From positions 99,762-163,761 of the forward strand of contig DAOQAL010000002.1 in assembly GCA_035353995.1 (NCBI GenBank): a stretch of DNA of 64,000 bases, read 5' to 3'. Each line of letters opens with the position of its first letter. Position 1 is the stretch's first letter. The DNA is from Minisyncoccota bacterium. GTDB lineage: Bacteria; Patescibacteriota; Minisyncoccia; Phycocordibacterales; UBA9973. Both the position numbers and the translations under genes were made by a program. The notes under the pieces were generated by a model that saw nothing but the letters and a program-made list of their open reading frames with translations, did no database searches and was not told the origin of the DNA. Below are positions 4,433 to 53,585 of the stretch, piece after piece.

Positions 4433-5461
4433 CTAAAATGTATTATCTTTAAAATCGTCTTGATATATTGAAATTAAAGTATAAAGCAAACTTACTACTA
4501 AAGGTCCAATTAAAATACCAACAGGACCGAGAAGTGCAATTCCACCCAATACTGAAAATAGAATAATAAATTCTGGAATTTTTATATTTTTTCCTATAAC
4601 AAAAGGACTTAATAAATTATCAATTAATCCAACAAGCACAACAGCCCATACAAGCATTCCAATTGCTTCTATTGTATGTCCTGTAGCATAAAGAAAAATT
4701 ACTGCTGGTACTGACACTAATGCTGTACCCACAGTAGGTATAAAAGAAGCAATAGCTGCAATTACTCCCCAAAGTGCAGGATTTGGTACTCCAAAGAAAG
4801 CCAATCCTATGCCCATTAAAAGTCCTTGGCATAGAGCGATAAAAAGATATCCTTTAATAACACCATTTACTGTTTTTTTTAATCTTGTAATTATTTTTTG
4901 ATCATTTCTATCAGACATTGGACTTAATGCAATCAAAGAATCTTTCCATTTATGTCCATCTTTTAAGAAATAGAAAATAGACAAAAGTAAAAGCAAAAAA
5001 GAAAATGCTGTTGAAAGCGTGGTGCTGAATATTTTTGCTACATTACTTGATATTAAAGAAATAAAATTAGAAATTTTTTCATTTAGATTAAAAGAAATTC
5101 CATTTGGTAGATAGTTGTTTATAGTGTCGTTTATATTTTCAAGAAATGGACCAATTTTTTCTCCATTTCCAACAATCTGATAAACATTCTGAGATTGATT
5201 AAAAACAATTACACCAATACCAAAGAGGGGACCACAAATTAATACTATAAATATAATTACAGAAAGAAGTGATGAAAGCCAGTTTGAAAAATGTTGTTTT
5301 TTAAACCAGTTATTAATTGGCAATAAAACAATAGCAAAAGAAGCTCCTAGTGCAAGAACAATCCAGAAAGGGCGGAATATAAAAAAGGCAAAAATTAATG
5401 TTAAAAATAATAAACCAAAAAAGAAATACTTTTGAGTTGTGTTTATTGGCATATTGGTCAT
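4433..5461 (-). CDS. AI-2E family (PerM/YhhT-like) membrane transporter
   Basis: 342 aa with about 8 predicted TM helices. Length and topology are typical of the family. There is no diagnostic motif, so this is a fold-level call only. Confidence 0.45.
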   Translation of the reverse strand: MTNMPINTTQKYFFFGLLFLTLIFAFFIFRPFWIVLALGASFAIVLLPINNWFKKQHFSNWLSSLLSVIIFIVLICGPLFGIGVIVFNQSQNVYQIVGNGEKIGPFLENINDTINNYLPNGISFNLNEKISNFISLISSNVAKIFSTTLSTAFSFLLLLLSIFYFLKDGHKWKDSLIALSPMSDRNDQKIITRLKKTVNGVIKGYLFIALCQGLLMGIGLAFFGVPNPALWGVIAAIASFIPTVGTALVSVPAVIFLYATGHTIEAIGMLVWAVVLVGLIDNLLSPFVIGKNIKIPEFIILFSVLGGIALLGPVGILIGPLVVSLLYTLISIYQDDFKDNTF

Positions 5462-5543: not shown

Positions 5544-5861
5544 ATGGAATTTGCAGTAATAAAAACAGGCGGAAAACAATACAAGGTCTCAAAGGACAGT
5601 GTTCTCTCTATTGAAAAAATAAAAGGGGAATACAAGAAAGGAGATAAAATATCTTTTGATAATGTTCTTTTAGTTGATGATGGAAAAGATACAACAATTG
5701 GTACACCTTATATAGCAGGAGCAAAAGTAGATGCTGAAATTCTTGAAATTGGAAGAAGTAGGAAAGTTCTAGTTGTAAAATATAAACAAAAGTCTCGTTA
5801 TCTAAAACGCAATGGACACCGCCAGCCATTCTTTAAAATAAAAATAATTTCTATAAAATAA
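5544..5861 (+). CDS. rplU: 50S ribosomal protein L21
   Basis: MEFAVIKTGGKQYKV... matches the L21 N-terminus (YAV..GGKQ). Length 105 aa. Confidence 0.8.
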   Translation: MEFAVIKTGGKQYKVSKDSVLSIEKIKGEYKKGDKISFDNVLLVDDGKDTTIGTPYIAGAKVDAEILEIGRSRKVLVVKYKQKSRYLKRNGHRQPFFKIKIISIK

Positions 5862-46775: not shown

Positions 46776-46803
46776 TAGCTAGCAAGGACGGTCCTTGCTA
46801 GTC
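46776..46803. repeat. second palindrome family, copy A (AGCTAGCAAGGAC-G-GTCCTTGCTAG)
   Basis: Seen directly. Eleven-bp perfect arms. It overlaps the stop codon of the 46798 ORF. Confidence 0.7.
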
Positions 46804-47334
46804 AAAATATTCAGGATTCTCTAAATGTATAAGAGCCATAGCAACAGCAGTTTTATTAAAATCTGTTCTATTCATTCTTCCTTTTGTTAATATTTCAATT
46901 ATACCTCCATGTTCTCCTAATTTTTCATGTTCAGTAAGACCAGCTAATTTCGTGGCCTGGCTACCATCTAATCCTTTATTCAATATTCCATCAATAACTT
47001 TTTTTGGCCATTCACATGCAGAAGAAAGTCCTATGTGAATCTTTTTACCATCAAAAATAGCACAAGCAGCAACTTCCATATAGCCTGATTTTGTATATGG
47101 AACTTCCATCAATCCACCTTCAATACCGAAGCCAAAATCATTATCTTTATAAGATTGTTTAGCTCTATCAACAGCCCCCGAAACTGTTTCTTTTATATTT
47201 TTAGGGTGACCAAATTCTTCAATATTTACAGTTACACCAAAAACTTCTGCATCCTTAAACATTGGATAATTTTTTAATAAATCAGAAACAGCATTTATTT
47301 TAGTTTTATTTTTTGAGCCAACACCAATTTTCAT
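46798..47334 (-). CDS. inosine/xanthosine triphosphatase-like (YjjX/DUF84 family) protein
   Basis: 178 aa. Pattern V.IEEFGHP ... GAVDRA ... IEGGL ... GGIIEILTKG ... TAVAMAL is collinear with YjjX-family non-canonical purine NTP phosphatases. Confidence 0.55.
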   Translation of the reverse strand: MKIGVGSKNKTKINAVSDLLKNYPMFKDAEVFGVTVNIEEFGHPKNIKETVSGAVDRAKQSYKDNDFGFGIEGGLMEVPYTKSGYMEVAACAIFDGKKIHIGLSSACEWPKKVIDGILNKGLDGSQATKLAGLTEHEKLGEHGGIIEILTKGRMNRTDFNKTAVAMALIHLENPEYFD

Positions 47335-47450
47335 AAAGTAAGTATATCAGAAATATAAATTAAACTTAATATTCTACAAAAAGATGTATCTAGGATACTA
47401 TATAACTAGAGCTAGAACTTTTTGATTCCTTACCCTGCAATATTATTTTT

Positions 47451-47496
47451 AGCTAGCAAGGACGGTCCTTAGCTAGCAAGGACGGTCCTTGCTAGT
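47451..47496. repeat. second palindrome family, tandem copies (20-nt unit AGCTAGCAAGGACGGTCCTT x2.3) in the divergent promoter region
   Basis: Seen directly, between 46798(-) and 47545(+). Confidence 0.7.
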
Positions 47497-47544
47497 TGCA
47501 TCGTAAGTCTATTATTTTATATTGCTTAGCGATATAATATAAAT

Positions 47545-48606
47545 ATGAAAGAAAATTATGGTGAAAATAAAGATGTTTCGATTGAAAAATTTAAAGACCT
47601 AAGAAAATTGGACTTATCTAATAAGGACTTAAAAAATATCCCTGTTGTTGTTCTAATGACCACAGATTTTGATACTGAAACGAAATGGCCAAGTAAAGAA
47701 AAATTACCATTAAATTTTAATCCTGAAGTTGTTTTAGAAAATGGTAAAAACTCAGGATTAGGCATTAAAGAATTACACGAACAAGGTATCACTGGAAAAG
47801 GGATAAATGTTGCGATTATAGACCAAAAATTAGATTTAAATCATAAAGAATATTCTGACAATGTAATTAACTATAAAGAATTTGGTAAATCAGGAAAAGA
47901 AGATATAAGTATGCACGGTCCAGCAGTAGCGAGTTTGTTTATCGGTAAAAATTGTGGAATAGCCCCAGAAGCAAAACTTTATTACGAAGCCAATCCATCT
48001 GCTGGTAATTCCAATTGGGATTGTTCCTCTGAGGGTTTGAATAAAATTATTGATTTCAATAATACAGTAGAAGAAAAAGATAAAATAAAAGTGGTTAGTT
48101 TTAGTAATGGACATCCAAATCCAGCTTTTAAGGGTAATTTAAAAAACTGGAAAGAAACAGTTAAAAAAGCAAAAAATAGTGGAATAATTTTTATTGATGC
48201 AAATACTTTTTTTGATTCAAATTTTATTGCTGGTGGCAGTAGTGGTGATAAAGAAAATATAGATGAATATAAAATTTGGTTAGCTATAGATAATAAAATT
48301 CCTATGTTTGATAAGATTAATTCGTCTTGGAATAAAAAAGATAGAATAGTTGTGCCTGCTGATTACAGAACAGTAGCTTCTTCTATAAATAAAAGTGGCG
48401 AGTATTGTTTTTACGGAAGAGGTGGAATTAGTTGGGCAATTCCATATTTAGCTGGAGTATGTTCTTTAATGTTGCAAATTAATGCTAACTTAAAAATGGA
48501 AGAAATAGTTAAAATTATTCAAACTACAGCTCTTGTAAATAAAGATGGTTTAAAGATTATTAACCCTAAAGGAGCGATAGAATCAGTAAGAACTCTAGCG
48601 GTCTAA
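47545..48606 (+). CDS. subtilisin-like (S8) peptidase-like protein with non-canonical motifs, no signal peptide
   Basis: GKGINVAIIDQ (Asp block), SMHGPAVAS (His block), GGISWAIPYLAGV (Ser block). These are D-H-S arranged as in subtilases but diverged from DTG/HGT/GTSMA. Confidence 0.45.
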   Translation: MKENYGENKDVSIEKFKDLRKLDLSNKDLKNIPVVVLMTTDFDTETKWPSKEKLPLNFNPEVVLENGKNSGLGIKELHEQGITGKGINVAIIDQKLDLNHKEYSDNVINYKEFGKSGKEDISMHGPAVASLFIGKNCGIAPEAKLYYEANPSAGNSNWDCSSEGLNKIIDFNNTVEEKDKIKVVSFSNGHPNPAFKGNLKNWKETVKKAKNSGIIFIDANTFFDSNFIAGGSSGDKENIDEYKIWLAIDNKIPMFDKINSSWNKKDRIVVPADYRTVASSINKSGEYCFYGRGGISWAIPYLAGVCSLMLQINANLKMEEIVKIIQTTALVNKDGLKIINPKGAIESVRTLAV

Positions 48607-48705
48607 ATTATATAAATGGGTTCTAACGTAGACCCAGACACCCAGCACTTCTTCACCTTCGCCGGACTCAGGCTCATCAGTGCCTACGGCCGGCAATACA
48701 ATATG

Positions 48706-48733
48706 TAGCTAGCAAGGACCGTCCTTGCTAGTC
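48706..48733. repeat. second palindrome family, copy C (TAGCTAGCAAGGAC-C-GTCCTTGCTAG)
   Basis: Seen directly, downstream of the S8-like gene after a short GC-rich patch (48607-48700). Confidence 0.7.
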
Positions 48734-48744
48734 GATAAATAATT

Positions 48745-48778
48745 AAAAAAAACCGTAGATCGCCTCTACGGTTTTTTA
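48745..48778. terminator. bidirectional intrinsic terminator
   Basis: A-run, ACCGTAG-ATCGCCT-CTACGGT hairpin, then a T6 run. Confidence 0.6.
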
Positions 48779-48796
48779 AGATACATAGCGTGCACA

Positions 48797-49027
48797 TTAC
48801 GTATTACTTACGTAACTCAATTTCAGTGGCCATTCATTTAAGCGTGAATTTCCTGGAAGACTAAACAGCTTCCTGGTAGCCCACCATGCATACTTTGGCC
48901 ATTTATCTGTAATTAGTGCTTGACACAGTGCAGGTATTAATTCTGCCAATTCGGCTACAGCAACAATTACTACGAATGCAATGTAAAATGCGTGCGCGAT
49001 ACAATTCAAAAATTTTTTTCTAAACAT
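48797..49027 (-). CDS. small membrane protein (hypothetical)
   Basis: 76 aa with one TM helix. Higher G+C than background. Weak call. Confidence 0.25.
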   Translation of the reverse strand: MFRKKFLNCIAHAFYIAFVVIVAVAELAELIPALCQALITDKWPKYAWWATRKLFSLPGNSRLNEWPLKLSYVSNT

Positions 49028-49226
49028 TTTTTATCCTCCAAGTTTAGTTAAACAATTATTTTTGTACCCTAAAATTCAAAAATCTATTACTGCTGTTGAT
49101 AATAGCATATTATAAATCATATGTCAATTGAGGTAGAACCTTTTAGTTCTTTGCTCAGTAATGTCATTTTACTACTTTTATAATATCAAAACGACGTATC
49201 AAGAGCGACTATTTTTTCTAAATTAA

Positions 49227-49925
49227 TTATTTAAATGAAATTTTAGAGCCAAGAAAATTTTTGTATATATCATTTAAAATAATCTCTGTAGAAGTTTGAC
49301 ATGATACACAAAATGAAAAAACTTCTTCTCCATTTTCTTTTAATTCATAAGCAGTAGCTTTTACTAAAGCTTTAATATTGCCTTCAATAATTTGTTCATT
49401 TATTGTAAAACCATTTTGCATTACAGGTATTACAACTTGCATTTCTTCTAAATCTGCGACAATTTGTTCTTGTCCTTGATTGTTGATTTCTAAAATATCA
49501 GAATGTTTTTTATTATTAACCAATATTCTGATCTCTCTGGGTAAAGAAGAGGATATACAAGTATTTGCTATATTTATATTATTATCTGCATTAAAAGCAA
49601 GTTTTGCTAAATAATCATATAGTAATTTATTAGTTGAAACTAGTTGATTAAAAGGCAATAAGTTTAATTGATTAATAAAAAAAGGAAATCCTTTTTCTCT
49701 TTCTTTTTTATTTAATTTTTGGGAAGTTGGTAAAATTAATAATTCAATTATATCTTGAGCACAATAGTCAAAACATTCTGTAGAAGTTTGTAATATATCT
49801 GCAACTAAGTGTGAAATATCATCACGCTTATTATTTTTTATCATGCTATCAAAAAGTATATTTCCAAGCTCTTGTTTTTTTGTAGATATATATTCTAATT
49901 TACTTTTTATGCTTAAATCTCTCAT
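49227..49925 (-). CDS. hypothetical protein (downstream partner of the HEPN-like ORF)
   Basis: 232 aa ORF with no recognised motif, 129 bp downstream of 50055..50675 on the same strand. Confidence 0.35.
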   Translation of the reverse strand: MRDLSIKSKLEYISTKKQELGNILFDSMIKNNKRDDISHLVADILQTSTECFDYCAQDIIELLILPTSQKLNKKEREKGFPFFINQLNLLPFNQLVSTNKLLYDYLAKLAFNADNNINIANTCISSSLPREIRILVNNKKHSDILEINNQGQEQIVADLEEMQVVIPVMQNGFTINEQIIEGNIKALVKATAYELKENGEEVFSFCVSCQTSTEIILNDIYKNFLGSKISFK

Positions 49926-50054
49926 ATTTATTGATTTAAATATCTATATTTTTTAATTATATTGCTAAACAATATAATTTAATAGATTTAGATTTATTTT
50001 GAACATGCGAACATTGCTCTAATTAACTATATTAATCTAATCAATTATTATATA

Positions 50055-50675
50055 TTATTTAATATAATTATTATTAAAAATAAGAAATTCTTTAATTTGT
50101 TCTGGTTTTAATTTTTTATCTATATCCCATTTAAAATGGGGCTGTTCTATTGTACGACCAATGTAAAAATCATATATAACATTTCTATACTGTAAATGTT
50201 CTATCTTTTTTATCATTGAAGAAACAAACTCATCTAAAAAAATTAATAATTGTGATGGAGAAAAAGATCTTGATTGAAATTTATTCTGAGGATATCTTGA
50301 TATTTCTTCTAAATGAGATAATAATGGCAATTTTTCAATTAAATTTTTTTCTTCAAAAAATTTATCTTTTCTTGCACATATATTAGCCCAGTATTCTAAT
50401 TTGTGTCCATTTTTTAAAAAGTCATCACATTTATTTTTTTTACCCGGATTAATCTCAATATTATTATCTAAGACAAAAGCTTTCATATATTTTTCCATGC
50501 ATTGTTGCAGGTGATAAAGACCCTGATCTGTTAAGTCCATGTTGAGCAATATACGGCAAGAAATATAATCTTCTTCAGCCTTTTGCAAGAAAATACCTCT
50601 AAAATAATCAATAGCCCATTCTTTATTGTCGTCTTCCTTAAATTTTTCTAATGATAAGCTAGCTTTGTTCTCCAC
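50055..50675 (-). CDS. HEPN-like domain protein
   Basis: YHLQQCMEKYMKAFVL ... NGHKLEYW resembles the HEPN helix pair (YH.QQ..EK.LKA.L ... H.L). Confidence 0.45.
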   Translation of the reverse strand: MENKASLSLEKFKEDDNKEWAIDYFRGIFLQKAEEDYISCRILLNMDLTDQGLYHLQQCMEKYMKAFVLDNNIEINPGKKNKCDDFLKNGHKLEYWANICARKDKFFEEKNLIEKLPLLSHLEEISRYPQNKFQSRSFSPSQLLIFLDEFVSSMIKKIEHLQYRNVIYDFYIGRTIEQPHFKWDIDKKLKPEQIKEFLIFNNNYIK

Positions 50676-50777
50676 TGCTATAATTGTATCACTATTAAAA
50701 TAAAATGCTTAAAATAACATATCTCGAGCGAAATAACCTCGCTCTTGCTGATTAGGAGACTAGGACCGCGGGTACGC

Positions 50778-51047
50778 TTATCTCCCTCGACTAAATTTTA
50801 AATAATTTGCCAATTGTTTTTTAAGAAACTTATACCCAGAACCGCTTTTCAAAAATTTTTCTCTGCCTATAGCATCTCTTTTGTCTACATAAGCTTCATA
50901 GTAGATTAATCTCCAATCTGTTTTTCTGCTCGTTGTTTGACCTCCATTTCCAGATAAATGGTTTTGCAATCTTTTCTTTAGGTTGCTTGAATATCCTATA
51001 TACCAACTCTTATCATTTTTTGATTCTAAAAGATATATATAATACAT
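50778..51047 (-). CDS. GIY-YIG nuclease family protein
   Basis: YIYLLESKNDKSWYIGYSSNLKKRLQNH is the GIY-(x10)-YIG motif plus a conserved R and N. Start is moved to the internal Met (MYYIY), because the tracked N-terminus is a translation of the tandem repeat. Confidence 0.65.
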   Translation of the reverse strand: MYYIYLLESKNDKSWYIGYSSNLKKRLQNHLSGNGGQTTSRKTDWRLIYYEAYVDKRDAIGREKFLKSGSGYKFLKKQLANYLKFSRGR

Positions 51048-51053
51048 AAATCT

Positions 51054-51134
51054 GGTCGCGTAAAAGCTAAAGCTCACGCGACTCACGATACATTAATATT
51101 GGTCGCGTAAAAGCTAAAGCTCACGCGACTCACG
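51054..51134. repeat. two identical 34-nt direct repeats (GGTCGCGTAAAAGCTAAAGCTCACGCGACTCACG), each a hairpin
   Basis: Copies at 51054-51087 and 51101-51134, upstream of the GIY-YIG gene. Confidence 0.75.
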
Positions 51135-51210
51135 TAAAATGCTTCGCATCCACCTGGCATTCCCTTACAGGGCCTGACACGTGGAAAATTGTAAAGCAAT
51201 TTTCTTTACG

Positions 51211-51284
51211 TGGCTGGGAGACTAGGAATCGAACCTAGATTAAAGGCTTCAAAGGCCTCTGTCCTACCGTTAGACGATCTCCCA
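51211..51284 (-). tRNA. tRNA-Gln (anticodon TTG), CCA encoded
   Basis: Hand-folded from the reverse complement: TGGGAGA-TC-GTCT-AACGGTA-GGAC-A-GAGGC-CTTTGAA-GCCTT-TAAT-CTAGG-TTCGATT-CCTAG-TCTCCCA-G-CCA. Confidence 0.8.
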
Positions 51285-51895: not shown

Positions 51896-51934
51896 AAATA
51901 AAAAAGCTTGGTCGTAATTAGCCAAGCTTTTTTG
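51896..51934. terminator. terminator hairpin, copy A of a 40-nt direct repeat (AAATAAAAAAGCTTGGTCGTAATT[A/G]GCCAAGCTTTTTT)
   Basis: Hairpin AAAGCTTGG-loop-CCAAGCTTT flanked by A and T runs, downstream of the purB stop. Confidence 0.65.
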
Positions 51935-51953
51935 TTAGTATACTCCACAATTC

Positions 51954-53547: not shown

Positions 53548-53585
53548 TAAAAAAGCTTGGTCGTAATTGGCCAAGCTTTTTTAGT
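53548..53585. terminator. terminator hairpin, copy B of the 40-nt direct repeat
   Basis: AAATAAAAAAGCTTGGTCGTAATTGGCCAAGCTTTTTT, upstream of the purB promoter region. Confidence 0.6.

Follow-up and report, generated by a model that had tools for sequence, protein, structure and literature searches.

A REP-type palindrome family and its probable RAYT-like partner in Patescibacteria

Repetitive extragenic palindromes (REPs), stem-loop sequences of ~20-40 nt, and the REP-associated tyrosine transposases (RAYTs) represent the best-studied case of a transposase turned long-term resident of bacterial genomes. Nearly all that is known of them comes from Proteobacteria, Cyanobacteria and Bacteroidetes. 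Here we describe a stretch of 64,000 nt from contig DAOQAL010000002.1 of a Minisyncoccota bacterium (GCA_035353995.1), referred to as the window, in which a 23-nt palindrome occurs at three places around the divergent genes of an NTPase and an S8 family peptidase. It is likely that these three palindromes are REP-type elements, i.e. copies of a hairpin repeat of ~23 nt that is the cognate partner of a Patescibacterial RAYT-like protein family.

As in the REPtrons that REPs or REPINs form with RAYTs in E. coli, Pseudomonas and Stenotrophomonas (PMC3116915, PMC5581495, PMC6006769, 4er8), extragenic hairpin palindromes are dispersed among unrelated genes, and the gene of a protein with HuH and 'Y---NP' motifs has the cognate palindrome on both sides, co-varying with the protein clade. 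Clusters and partial or tandem copies resemble those of bacterial interspersed mosaic elements (BIMEs) made of REPs, and REPIN-like inverted doublets occur in some relatives. Unlike classical REPs, the Patescibacterial element consists of a perfect stem of 10-14 bp with a loop of ~1-3 nt and has no GT[AG]G. Moreover, a single core recurs in at least 63 species-level assemblies, while classical REPs are for the most part confined to one genus or species, and in contrast to classical REPtrons the upstream copy systematically overlaps the -35 or -10 of the gene. To these unusual traits (perfect short-loop palindrome, widely shared core, promoter overlap) the frequent donation of stop codons is added.

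RAYT-like genes accompanied by atypical secondary structures without GT[AG]G have been described as TnpA_Y1 subclass 2.6 and class 3 (Quentin et al. 2018, PMC6006769). Compared by description, the system reported here resembles these in its class 2-type protein with extra conserved C-terminal sequence including serines (here YSSY), in the atypical flanking hairpins lacking a GTAG foot, and in the presence of copies elsewhere in the genome. It differs in its hosts, which are Patescibacteria instead of mainly Bacteroidetes (subclass 2.6) or Planctomycetes, Acidobacteria and Proteobacteria (class 3), and its hairpins are strong and perfect, unlike the 'weaker secondary structures' of these groups. 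Insertion sequences (IS) of the IS200/IS605 type, such as IS608 and ISDra2, share with it superfamily and fold, gene-flanking hairpins and insertion without long target duplication. Unlike these, the Patescibacterial system has 'Y---NP', a longer protein with a C-terminal domain and no tnpB; solo hairpins far outnumber gene units, and one and the same palindrome forms both flanking hairpins, where the IS have distinct left and right ends.

Altogether, the Patescibacterial system works like REP/RAYT and has most of the defining features, the misfits being the missing GT[AG]G foot, an NCBIfam cutoff that is not reached, and a high copy number that is unproven. Two broad RAYT/REP surveys (PMC6006769, PMC5581495) make no mention of the Candidate Phyla Radiation (CPR) or Patescibacteria, and in our literature search no publication connected RAYT or REPIN with Patescibacteria; the one co-mention concerned an archaeal locus. 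What is already known is that automated annotation by JGI labels some of the partner proteins RayT.

Palindromes of the window and their core in other genomes

The palindrome CTAGCAAGGAC-N-GTCCTTGCTAG is a perfect one of 23 nt and is present in three full copies and one truncated copy:

46779-46801, no strand: REP-like palindrome copy 1, CTAGCAAGGACGGTCCTTGCTAG; hairpin as single-stranded DNA (ssDNA) with dG -10.4 kcal/mol, z -5.5
47450-47469, no strand: truncated tandem 'stutter' copy, TAGCTAGCAAGGACGGTCCT, with incomplete right arm
47473-47495, no strand: REP-like palindrome copy 2, complete, in the gap from which the NTPase and S8 genes diverge
48709-48731, no strand: REP-like palindrome copy 3, CTAGCAAGGACCGTCCTTGCTAG, in the convergent gap past the S8 gene

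A scan with the pattern CTAGCAAGGACNGTCCTTGCTAG returned exactly three matches in the 64 kb, all of them perfect, and still three with 3 mismatches permitted; in 100 dinucleotide-preserving shuffles of the window the pattern did not occur (0 matches). This confirms the three perfect-armed sites reported in the initial annotation. The octamer GCAAGGAC was found 7 times in the window, every time inside palindrome sites, versus 0.64 occurrences expected. At the central site the 20-nt unit TAGCTAGCAAGGACGGTCCT is present a second time at 47470-47489 and is followed by TGCTAG, in agreement with the '2.3 tandem 20-nt units' previously noted for this divergent region. As ssDNA the window sites form hairpins of 10-11 bp with dG values from -9.8 to -18.1 kcal/mol (z -5.5 to -7.5), copy 2 and the truncated copy folding together at -18.1 kcal/mol. 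The base composition of the window is AT-rich, locally ~25-35% GC. At the Rfam gathering threshold the whole window yielded 3 tRNAs and nothing else. Relaxing the threshold to E up to 1 over 48500-49150 gave sub-threshold matches only, which mirrored the hairpins and left a structured RNA family unsupported.

The immediate flanks agree at all three copies (TAG at one end, T(C/T) at the opposite end), which fits one genome-specific variant that may have spread locally. In the 76.5 kb of the source genome covered, consisting of the window and contig extensions of 3.2 kb and 9.3 kb, no copies besides these three were present, and all three lie within 2 kb. By our estimate, random placement would put three copies into three consecutive gaps in about 1 in 1,000 cases for ~80 gaps. 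Sequences 100% identical to the window over 5-14 kb were found in contig DAONEG010000003.1 of GCA_035402945.1 and in several Logan/ENA contigs (Candidatus Paceibacterota population).

One genome per species of Bacteria and Archaea (596 Gb) was scanned with the pattern TAGCAAGGACNGTCCTTGCTA. The core TAGCAAGGAC-N-GTCCTTGCTA occurred in at least 119 stretches, where ~0.5 chance matches are estimated for 20 specified bases, and in at least 63 assemblies (80 loci among the matches listed). Among the matches listed, nearly all are metagenome-assembled genomes (MAGs) of Patescibacteria, labelled Paceibacterota, Nomurabacteria, Taylorbacteria, Staskawiczbacteria, Colwellbacteria, Minisyncoccia, 'Patescibacteria group' and, in some catalogue MAGs, 'Saccharibacteria'. 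The core is also present in one contig each with the label 'Chitinophagales' or 'Pacearchaeota', and MAG labels may include mis-binned contigs. Viral contigs gave 0 matches to the core, and the partner protein family described below has a single distant viral relative (21% identity); a phage origin was therefore dropped.

Core statistics refer to 144 cores (142 with full flanks) from genome loci chosen by exact core match, in which open reading frames (ORFs) were called in a simple way (at least 70 aa, longest first, greedy). The central base is free (G40/T38/A34/C30). Flanks outside the 10+10 core are genome-specific, the base before the core is variable and no GT[AG]G tag is present; yet the flanks extend the pairing, being complementary in 69, 49, 47 and 40% at flank positions one to four against a background of 27-31%, with all four Watson-Crick pairs seen at the first flank position. 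Intergenic positions account for 130/144 cores, with 81 in tandem, 16 in divergent and 15 in convergent gaps and the remainder at contig edges. The gene ends facing the cores are 3' in 127 and 5' in 126 cases, and the 232 ORFs flanking the cores fall into 194 clusters. These data establish a repeat family with hairpin-type constraints and extragenic scatter.

This distribution bears directly on the self-contained two-gene module with a shared operator that the initial annotation had proposed. According to that explanation, a single dimeric regulator binds the palindromes as operators and controls both the NTPase and the S8 gene. In its favour, dimeric repressors typically have sites with perfect dyad symmetry, a divergent promoter region contains one of the copies, and the palindrome over the promoter of RAYT-like genes (see below) makes protein binding at a promoter plausible. 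However, the same core recurs over the stretches and assemblies counted above and adjoins 194 unrelated gene clusters, it is found in convergent gaps and faces 3' and 5' ends alike, and two of the three window copies stand at gene 3' ends. Furthermore, the pairing-extending variable flanks and the free central base point to a nucleic-acid hairpin, not to a duplex read by a protein, and in relatives the NTPase and S8 genes are not found together and lack the palindrome. The module thus does not hold, and we regard joint control through operators as very improbable. A purely operator role was rejected on the basis of the 15 convergent gaps and the equal 3'/5' facing, and a purely terminator role on the basis of the 16 divergent gaps and the few T-runs.

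Within 45 nt of 51/140 cores there are additional half-site hexamers oriented like the arm next to them; 72 hexamers have this orientation versus 8 with the opposite one and ~6 expected. The window's truncated tandem copy exemplifies this general 'stutter'. In 11/144 cores the outer TAG of the element is the stop codon of the adjoining ORF, which is a RAYT-like gene in 4 cases and another gene in 7:

L008, L029, L046, L060, L066, L067, L080, L084, L087, L106 and window 46798-46800: loci at which the element donates the stop codon

Insertion at the extreme end of a gene seems to be tolerated since the element brings its own stop codon.

Copies are also clustered elsewhere, with up to 5 per 8 kb; locus L045 has 5 copies around 4 single genes, and L027 has 4 copies. 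The genes bracketed in this way encode VTT/DedA proteins, histidine phosphatases, Fic and DUF2726 proteins and hypotheticals. Since these clusters surround unrelated genes, local spread is a property of the element, and bracketing by palindromes gives no sign of a functional gene set. The succession of repeat, gene, repeat, gene and repeat at gene-sized spacing, which the window shares with clusters such as that of L045, and the accessory type of bracketed genes (Fic, DUF2726, histidine phosphatases) would also suit recombination sites, integron attC-like or Xer/dif-module-like, that bound cassettes, with the NTPase and S8 genes being two of these. This is contradicted by the arms being 1 base apart, which leaves no crossover region of 6-8 bp for a tyrosine recombinase, by the lack of an integrase/Xer-like gene beside the arrays, and by the recurrent partner being a Y1/HUH enzyme. 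In addition, no bracketed gene family was found again at other sites with its repeats, and orthologues of both window genes exist without repeats. attC or Xer/dif sites were rejected for the 1-nt arm gap and the missing recombinase, and cassettes bounded by recombination sites are hardly credible as an explanation of the locus. The earlier suggestion of terminal repeats of something mobile went in the right direction, the repeats being probably of REP type.

A RAYT-like partner protein and its cognate palindromes

The largest cluster of flanking ORFs, and the sole recurrent neighbour of the core, comprises 15 members that encode a Y1/HUH protein of 223-263 aa. This partner protein passes PF01797 (Y1_Tnp, IS200-like) with 25-38 bits versus a cutoff of 23. 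Alignments of 14 and 40 members were made: in alignment A1, H85-F86-H87, Y146 and N150 are invariant and the HuH-to-Y spacing is ~59 aa, and in alignment A4, N84, F86, H87, Y145 and N149 are invariant and H85 is conserved in at least 90%. The tyrosine is part of Y-I-H-L-N-P, i.e. 'Y---NP', and a conserved C-terminal domain is present. 'Y---NP' is the signature of class 2 (TnpA_REP), IS200 having 'Y---Q', and the HuH-to-Y spacing is typically 58-67 (PMC6006769).

The AlphaFold model of the partner (pLDDT 83, pTM 0.83) had its top Foldseek match in the PDB in 4er8_A (E 4.2e-5, prob 1.00, TM 0.59, target-normalised), which shows the REP-associated tyrosine transposase of E. coli in complex with a REP hairpin (PDB 4er8). 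IS608 and ISDra2 TnpA were the next fold matches; matches to Thg1 share the core fold and were judged incidental. A sequence-only PDB search with a single partner sequence found nothing. Public databases contain 643 relatives, which are named 'transposase', 'hypothetical protein' or 'REP element-mobilizing transposase RayT' (JGI). The 15 partner genes come from 15 loci, those with a listed assembly all from separate assemblies, and diverge by a median of 34%, about like a housekeeping gene. Judged from sequence and predicted structure, the partner appears to be a RAYT-like class 2 Y1/HUH tyrosine transposase family that is widespread in Patescibacteria (Paceibacteria/Parcubacteria).

In 7 genome loci (L008, L029, L037, L066, L077, L079, L080) the core is located on both sides of the partner gene, with 707-781 bp between the two flanking copies. 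The right arm TTGCTA of the upstream copy lies 16-18 nt from a TATAAT-like hexamer, which itself is ~6 nt from the ATG. This spacing would place the arm at the -35 of a promoter giving a nearly leaderless mRNA. The downstream copy is within ~10 nt of the stop of the partner gene, and in 4/7 loci the TAG stop constitutes the first three bases of the palindrome.

The reciprocal sample consisted of 80 metagenomic loci fetched by protein alignment alone (40-69% identity, of 562 found). A sequence of at least 9 nt on either strand was shared between the 150 nt upstream of the gene and the region around or after its stop in 65/71 evaluable loci, compared to 7/47 in a control located 500 bp further on. 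The shared flanking sequence is a palindrome that varies with the protein clade: among the closest relatives it is either the TAGCAAGGAC core or GCAAGAAC-N-GTTCTTGC, both arms being changed in the latter, and more distant relatives have palindromes such as TGTCAAGGTTGAACCTTGACA, GAGCAAGGACTCCCCTTGCTC, CATAGGCGAGGCCTATG and GGGAGGACTGTCCTCCC, an inner AAGG...CCTT being common to many. In the protein-selected loci the palindrome again overlaps the promoter, either at the -35 (16/43, including all five closest) or abutting the -10 box. Inverted doublets with arms of 17-28 bp, resembling REPINs, were found in L130, L142, L174, L184, L193, L205 and L207. A hairpin and a protein that change together are the defining picture of the REPtron and of RAYT/REP co-evolution, for which PMC6006769 and PMC5581495 served as standard of comparison; cognate pairing and REPtron-like geometry are thus observed features of the Patescibacterial system. 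A first impression that the core is invariant throughout the phylum was dropped, as GCAAGAAC-N-GTTCTTGC and further variants turned up in close relatives in the protein-first sample. Across the group the exact core is common without being invariant, its apparent invariance being partly due to ascertainment.

Two side observations concern further palindromes at such loci. L192 was listed among the RAYT-like loci with a second palindrome family or REPIN-like doublets, and in L038 (5565-6400) CAGCAAGGACTACCCTTGCTG occurs as a second palindrome family beside the TAGCAAGGAC core.

Several points weigh against a REP/RAYT system. The sole NCBIfam match of the partner, NF047646 (REP_Tyr_transpos), scored 23.5-30.6 bits and thus remained far below the cutoff of 80, and a profile search of the PDB produced weak matches to the IS200 family only (E ~0.06 to ISDra2 TnpA). 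Tblastn with the 15 proteins detected no RAYT-like gene in the window (best E 0.05), and none was present in the contig extensions that complete the 76.5 kb of its source genome. The copy number appears low, with three copies within 2 kb of those 76.5 kb versus tens to hundreds per genome for classical REPs, and the 5' GT[AG]G (or CGTC) tag at the hairpin foot of classical REPs is missing from the element. The exact core was present in the upstream region of just 1/78 protein-selected loci; the genome loci had been selected by exact core match, and their ORF calls were crude. Cleavage and mobilisation by the partner protein, finally, are inferred by analogy.

The same evidence allows the palindromes to be viewed as left- and right-end hairpins of an active IS of the IS200/IS605 type, with solo copies being decayed or abortive ends instead of REPs kept up by a domesticated single-copy transposase. 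The unit of hairpin, Y1 gene and hairpin, ~0.75 kb in size, has an IS200-like look, Pfam places the partner in the IS200-like family, and insertion without long target duplication fits IS200/IS605. We nevertheless consider an active IS quite unlikely. The partner has 'Y---NP' and not the 'Y---Q' of IS200, it has 223-263 aa with a conserved C-terminal domain versus ~150 aa for IS200 TnpA, and the solved structure closest to it in fold is that of a RAYT, 4er8. Solo palindromes exceed gene-linked ones by ~9 to 1, bracketed units without the partner gene hold unrelated cargo, and the 15 genes occupy 15 loci, in separate assemblies where listed, at the median divergence given above.

For the REP/RAYT system, a mechanism can be proposed along the lines of E. 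coli TnpA_REP and IS200/IS605. The RAYT-like protein would recognise the folded ssDNA hairpin, probably at the replication fork, and would cleave and rejoin DNA beside the stem, as known for TnpA_REP and IS608/ISDra2 (PMC6006769, 4er8). Such cutting and rejoining could disperse copies without long target duplications and leave behind truncated tandem 'stutter' copies, and binding of the protein to the copy over its own promoter may render the gene self-limiting. In the window, a variable region would have received three copies, one in each of three successive intergenic gaps, which bracket two genes by chance, one of the copies presumably swapping the native TAA stop of the NTPase gene for its own TAG. 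At present the window copies might act through an mRNA 3' hairpin before a terminator, or through a -35-like hexamer directed towards the S8 gene.

If these streamlined, tiny and mostly uncultured genomes possess a REPtron-like system, this would account for conspicuous intergenic palindromes that otherwise risk being taken for operators, terminators or cassette boundaries. Recent insertions and strain-level variation in Patescibacteria MAGs may be followed with TAGCAAGGAC-N-GTCCTTGCTA, together with the co-varying relatives of this core, as a sequence tag, and the many natural protein/hairpin pairs in which both stem arms are changed lend themselves to studying how Y1/HUH enzymes read hairpins. 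A more far-reaching idea, to which we give little credence, is that Patescibacteria possess a long-lived domesticated RAYT/REP system in which every insertion could supply promoter element, stop codon and RNA 3' hairpin at once, the transposase would repress itself by binding the copy over its promoter, and bracketing pairs such as those of the window and L045 might let the Y1 enzyme move accessory genes as ssDNA cassettes. Within its 23 nt the element does contain an outward-facing -35-like TTGCTA on both strands and TAG at each end. Either the portable package or the cassette movement, if true, would amount to a gene-expression and gene-shuffling device for extremely streamlined genomes.

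The bracketed NTPase and S8 genes and the empty site

The genes enclosed by the palindromes, and the promoter box of the S8 gene, are the following:

46798-47334, minus strand: inosine/xanthosine triphosphatase-like NTPase (PF01931 NTPase_I-T / DUF84, E 3.6e-34), 178 aa, full length
47533-47538, plus strand: TATAAT box, 6 nt upstream of the S8 ATG, in a leaderless-type geometry also found at RAYT-like genes
47545-48606, plus strand: S8 (subtilase) family peptidase (PF00082 Peptidase_S8, E 5.5e-12), 353 aa

The Pfam match bears out the previous description of the NTPase as YjjX-like, and its 692 homologues have ~177-178 aa and the same C-terminus. The right arm of copy 1 overlaps the stop of this gene, with CTA at 46798-46800 being the minus-strand TAG. 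In L213, the NTPase gene of which is 90% identical, the gene ends with ...TAT TTT GAC TAA AGAG and no palindrome is present. The window gene ends with ...TAT TTT GAC TAG CAAGGACCGTCCTTGCTAGC TAAAAAAG, written as GAC TAGCAAGGACCGTCCTTGCTAGC TAAAAAAG in the comparison of copy 1. The window thus has a net +23 nt exactly at the stop codon, where the TAG of the element replaces TAA. CTA is present at both junctions of copy 1, so that a target duplication of up to 3 nt is possible. L213 represents the empty site relative to window copy 1, which demonstrates an insertion polymorphism, i.e. presence and absence of the element, between close relatives.

In relatives at 90, 85 and 81% identity neither an S8 gene nearby nor a palindrome was found; the NTPase gene there neighbours an unannotated ORF (90%), a HIT-family gene (85%) and a NUDIX-acetyltransferase gene (81%). 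The NTPase gene is a bystander outside the repeat system. Copy 2 falls beyond the ~100 nt upstream of the NTPase ATG that are conserved with relatives. In this upstream region a AAAAGTTCGAGTC-like motif resembling a tRNA T-arm was noticed ~70-80 nt before the ATG, in the window (47335-47440, minus strand), in L213 (1150-1260) and in L214. L214 has it at 4900-5000 and 5560-5640, one occurrence being downstream of the NTPase gene.

The S8 protein was previously described as S8-like with a subtilase-like D/H/S order, unusual motifs and no signal peptide, and as possibly not a conventional protease. Family and order are borne out by the Pfam match, by alignment with solved subtilases over residues 75-336 (best Tk-SP, 3afg/9ues, ~2e-8; other matches are intracellular subtilisins, e.g. 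7xr8), by the alignment of Asp, His and Ser to the catalytic positions of 3afg/9ues, and by the invariance of D93, H124 and S296 in 30/30 family members. Conservation of the oxyanion-hole Asn was not confirmed in the family alignment. The motifs IIDQ, SMHGPAV and GGISW are real; they are nearly invariant in the alignment of these 30 members and hence typical, as far as the alignment indicates, of the Patescibacterial S8 subfamily instead of odd. On reading the sequence no N-terminal hydrophobic segment was found, in line with the stated lack of a signal peptide, and this agrees with the likeness to intracellular subtilisins. By these sequence comparisons the protein aligns to subtilases far better than chance would allow and is a genuine member of the subtilase family, and nothing points to anything but a protease.

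S8 homologues number 611, mostly from Patescibacteria. Relatives at 84, 71 and 59% identity have no palindrome, and their neighbours are HicA and rpl20 (84%), DnaJ (71%) and a 2'-5' RNA ligase (59%). Co-occurrence of the two genes, which the two-gene module implied, was thus not seen: three S8 and three NTPase relatives all had different neighbours. The S8 gene is a bystander as well. For both genes the outcome is deflationary, these being ordinary housekeeping or accessory genes that were probably bracketed by chance. A TATAAT-like box ~6 nt upstream of the ATG was observed at most RAYT-like genes (L024-L080, L129-L208) and at the window S8 gene (47533-47547), which suggests that leaderless or near-leaderless transcripts may be common in these Paceibacteria.

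These details are relevant to the explanation that the palindromes are mainly host-function elements, RNA 3' hairpins and/or portable -35 elements, kept for shaping the expression of both genes. RNA fold prediction gives copy 3 a hairpin of 11 bp that precedes a canonical terminator hairpin by 14 nt and would add a stable structure to the 3' untranslated region of the S8 gene. The right arm of copy 2, TTGCTA at 47489-47494, is -35-like, with TATTTT 18 nt downstream of it, ahead of the S8 gene; before RAYT-like genes TTGCTA is at the -35, 16-18 nt from the -10 box. The TAG of the element is the stop of 11 neighbouring ORFs including the window NTPase, and classical REPs affect mRNA stability and termination according to two reports (PMC3479197, PMC3733652). 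On the other hand, the best -10 box of the S8 gene (47533-47538) is ~38 nt from the arm of copy 2, which is not a -35 spacing. Few copies have a T-run behind them, copies in divergent gaps would be pointless as terminators and those in convergent gaps pointless as promoters, and close relatives have the same genes without the element. Host function as the main reason for the palindromes is rather unlikely; it is compatible with a REP/RAYT origin and secondary to it.

Other motifs and genes of the neighbourhood

Three further features follow the S8 gene:

48619-48646, plus strand: non-palindromic motif GGTTCTAACGTAGACCCAGACACCCAGC, outside the REP family and related to a promoter-associated repeat in L123
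48647-48700, no strand: GC-rich stretch ('remnant'), 51% GC in a genome of ~28% GC
48747-48777, no strand: bidirectional intrinsic terminator-like hairpin of 13 bp for the convergent genes, flanked by an A-run and a T-run

The non-palindromic motif, GGTTCCAAT-N7-CCAGACACCCAGC, occurs at 48619-48646 in the window and at 461, 1394, 2148, 2641, 3086, 3698, 5957, 7104 and 7636 in L123. There it is located 17-20 nt upstream of TATAAT before ~10 consecutive co-directional genes (NUDIX, His_Phos, GIY-YIG, RNA ligase, S8 and others). One copy comes right after the S8 stop codon in both L123 and the window, the window copy having no gene behind it. From its position the motif looks like a shared promoter or upstream element, or a site for an alternative sigma factor or activator.

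The short GC-rich stretch that had been noted ahead of the third palindrome copy was found again, with ~50% GC at 48607-48700. Its part 48647-48700 had no homologue in the fetched loci and no significant Rfam match. The possibility that it is a relic of the gene following S8 in L123 was rejected, as blastn and tblastx found just a shared motif of 13-27 nt.

Beyond the terminator, an ORF of 76 aa without Pfam match is encoded on the minus strand at 48797-49027 (~43% GC). A variable-looking patch at 49227-51284 adjoins the palindrome cluster and contains an unannotated ORF of 232 aa, a HEPN-domain protein (50055-50675), a small GIY-YIG protein (50778-51086) and tRNA-Gln (51211-51284); in GCA_035402945.1, from the same population, a contig ends right at this patch. 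In L211 (12935-20933), ~2-10 kb past the right end of the window, there is a prophage-like block with genes for AAA_24, Phage_rep_O, a ParB_N-N6/N4 methylase fusion, a C5 DNA methylase and portal/Mu_F proteins. Another hairpin, (T/A)AAAAAAGCTTGG-N10-CCAAGCTTTTTT, which is probably the first palindrome family that the initial annotation implies by speaking of a second one, is present in 2 copies at 51897-51936 and 53548-53583 and is terminator-like.

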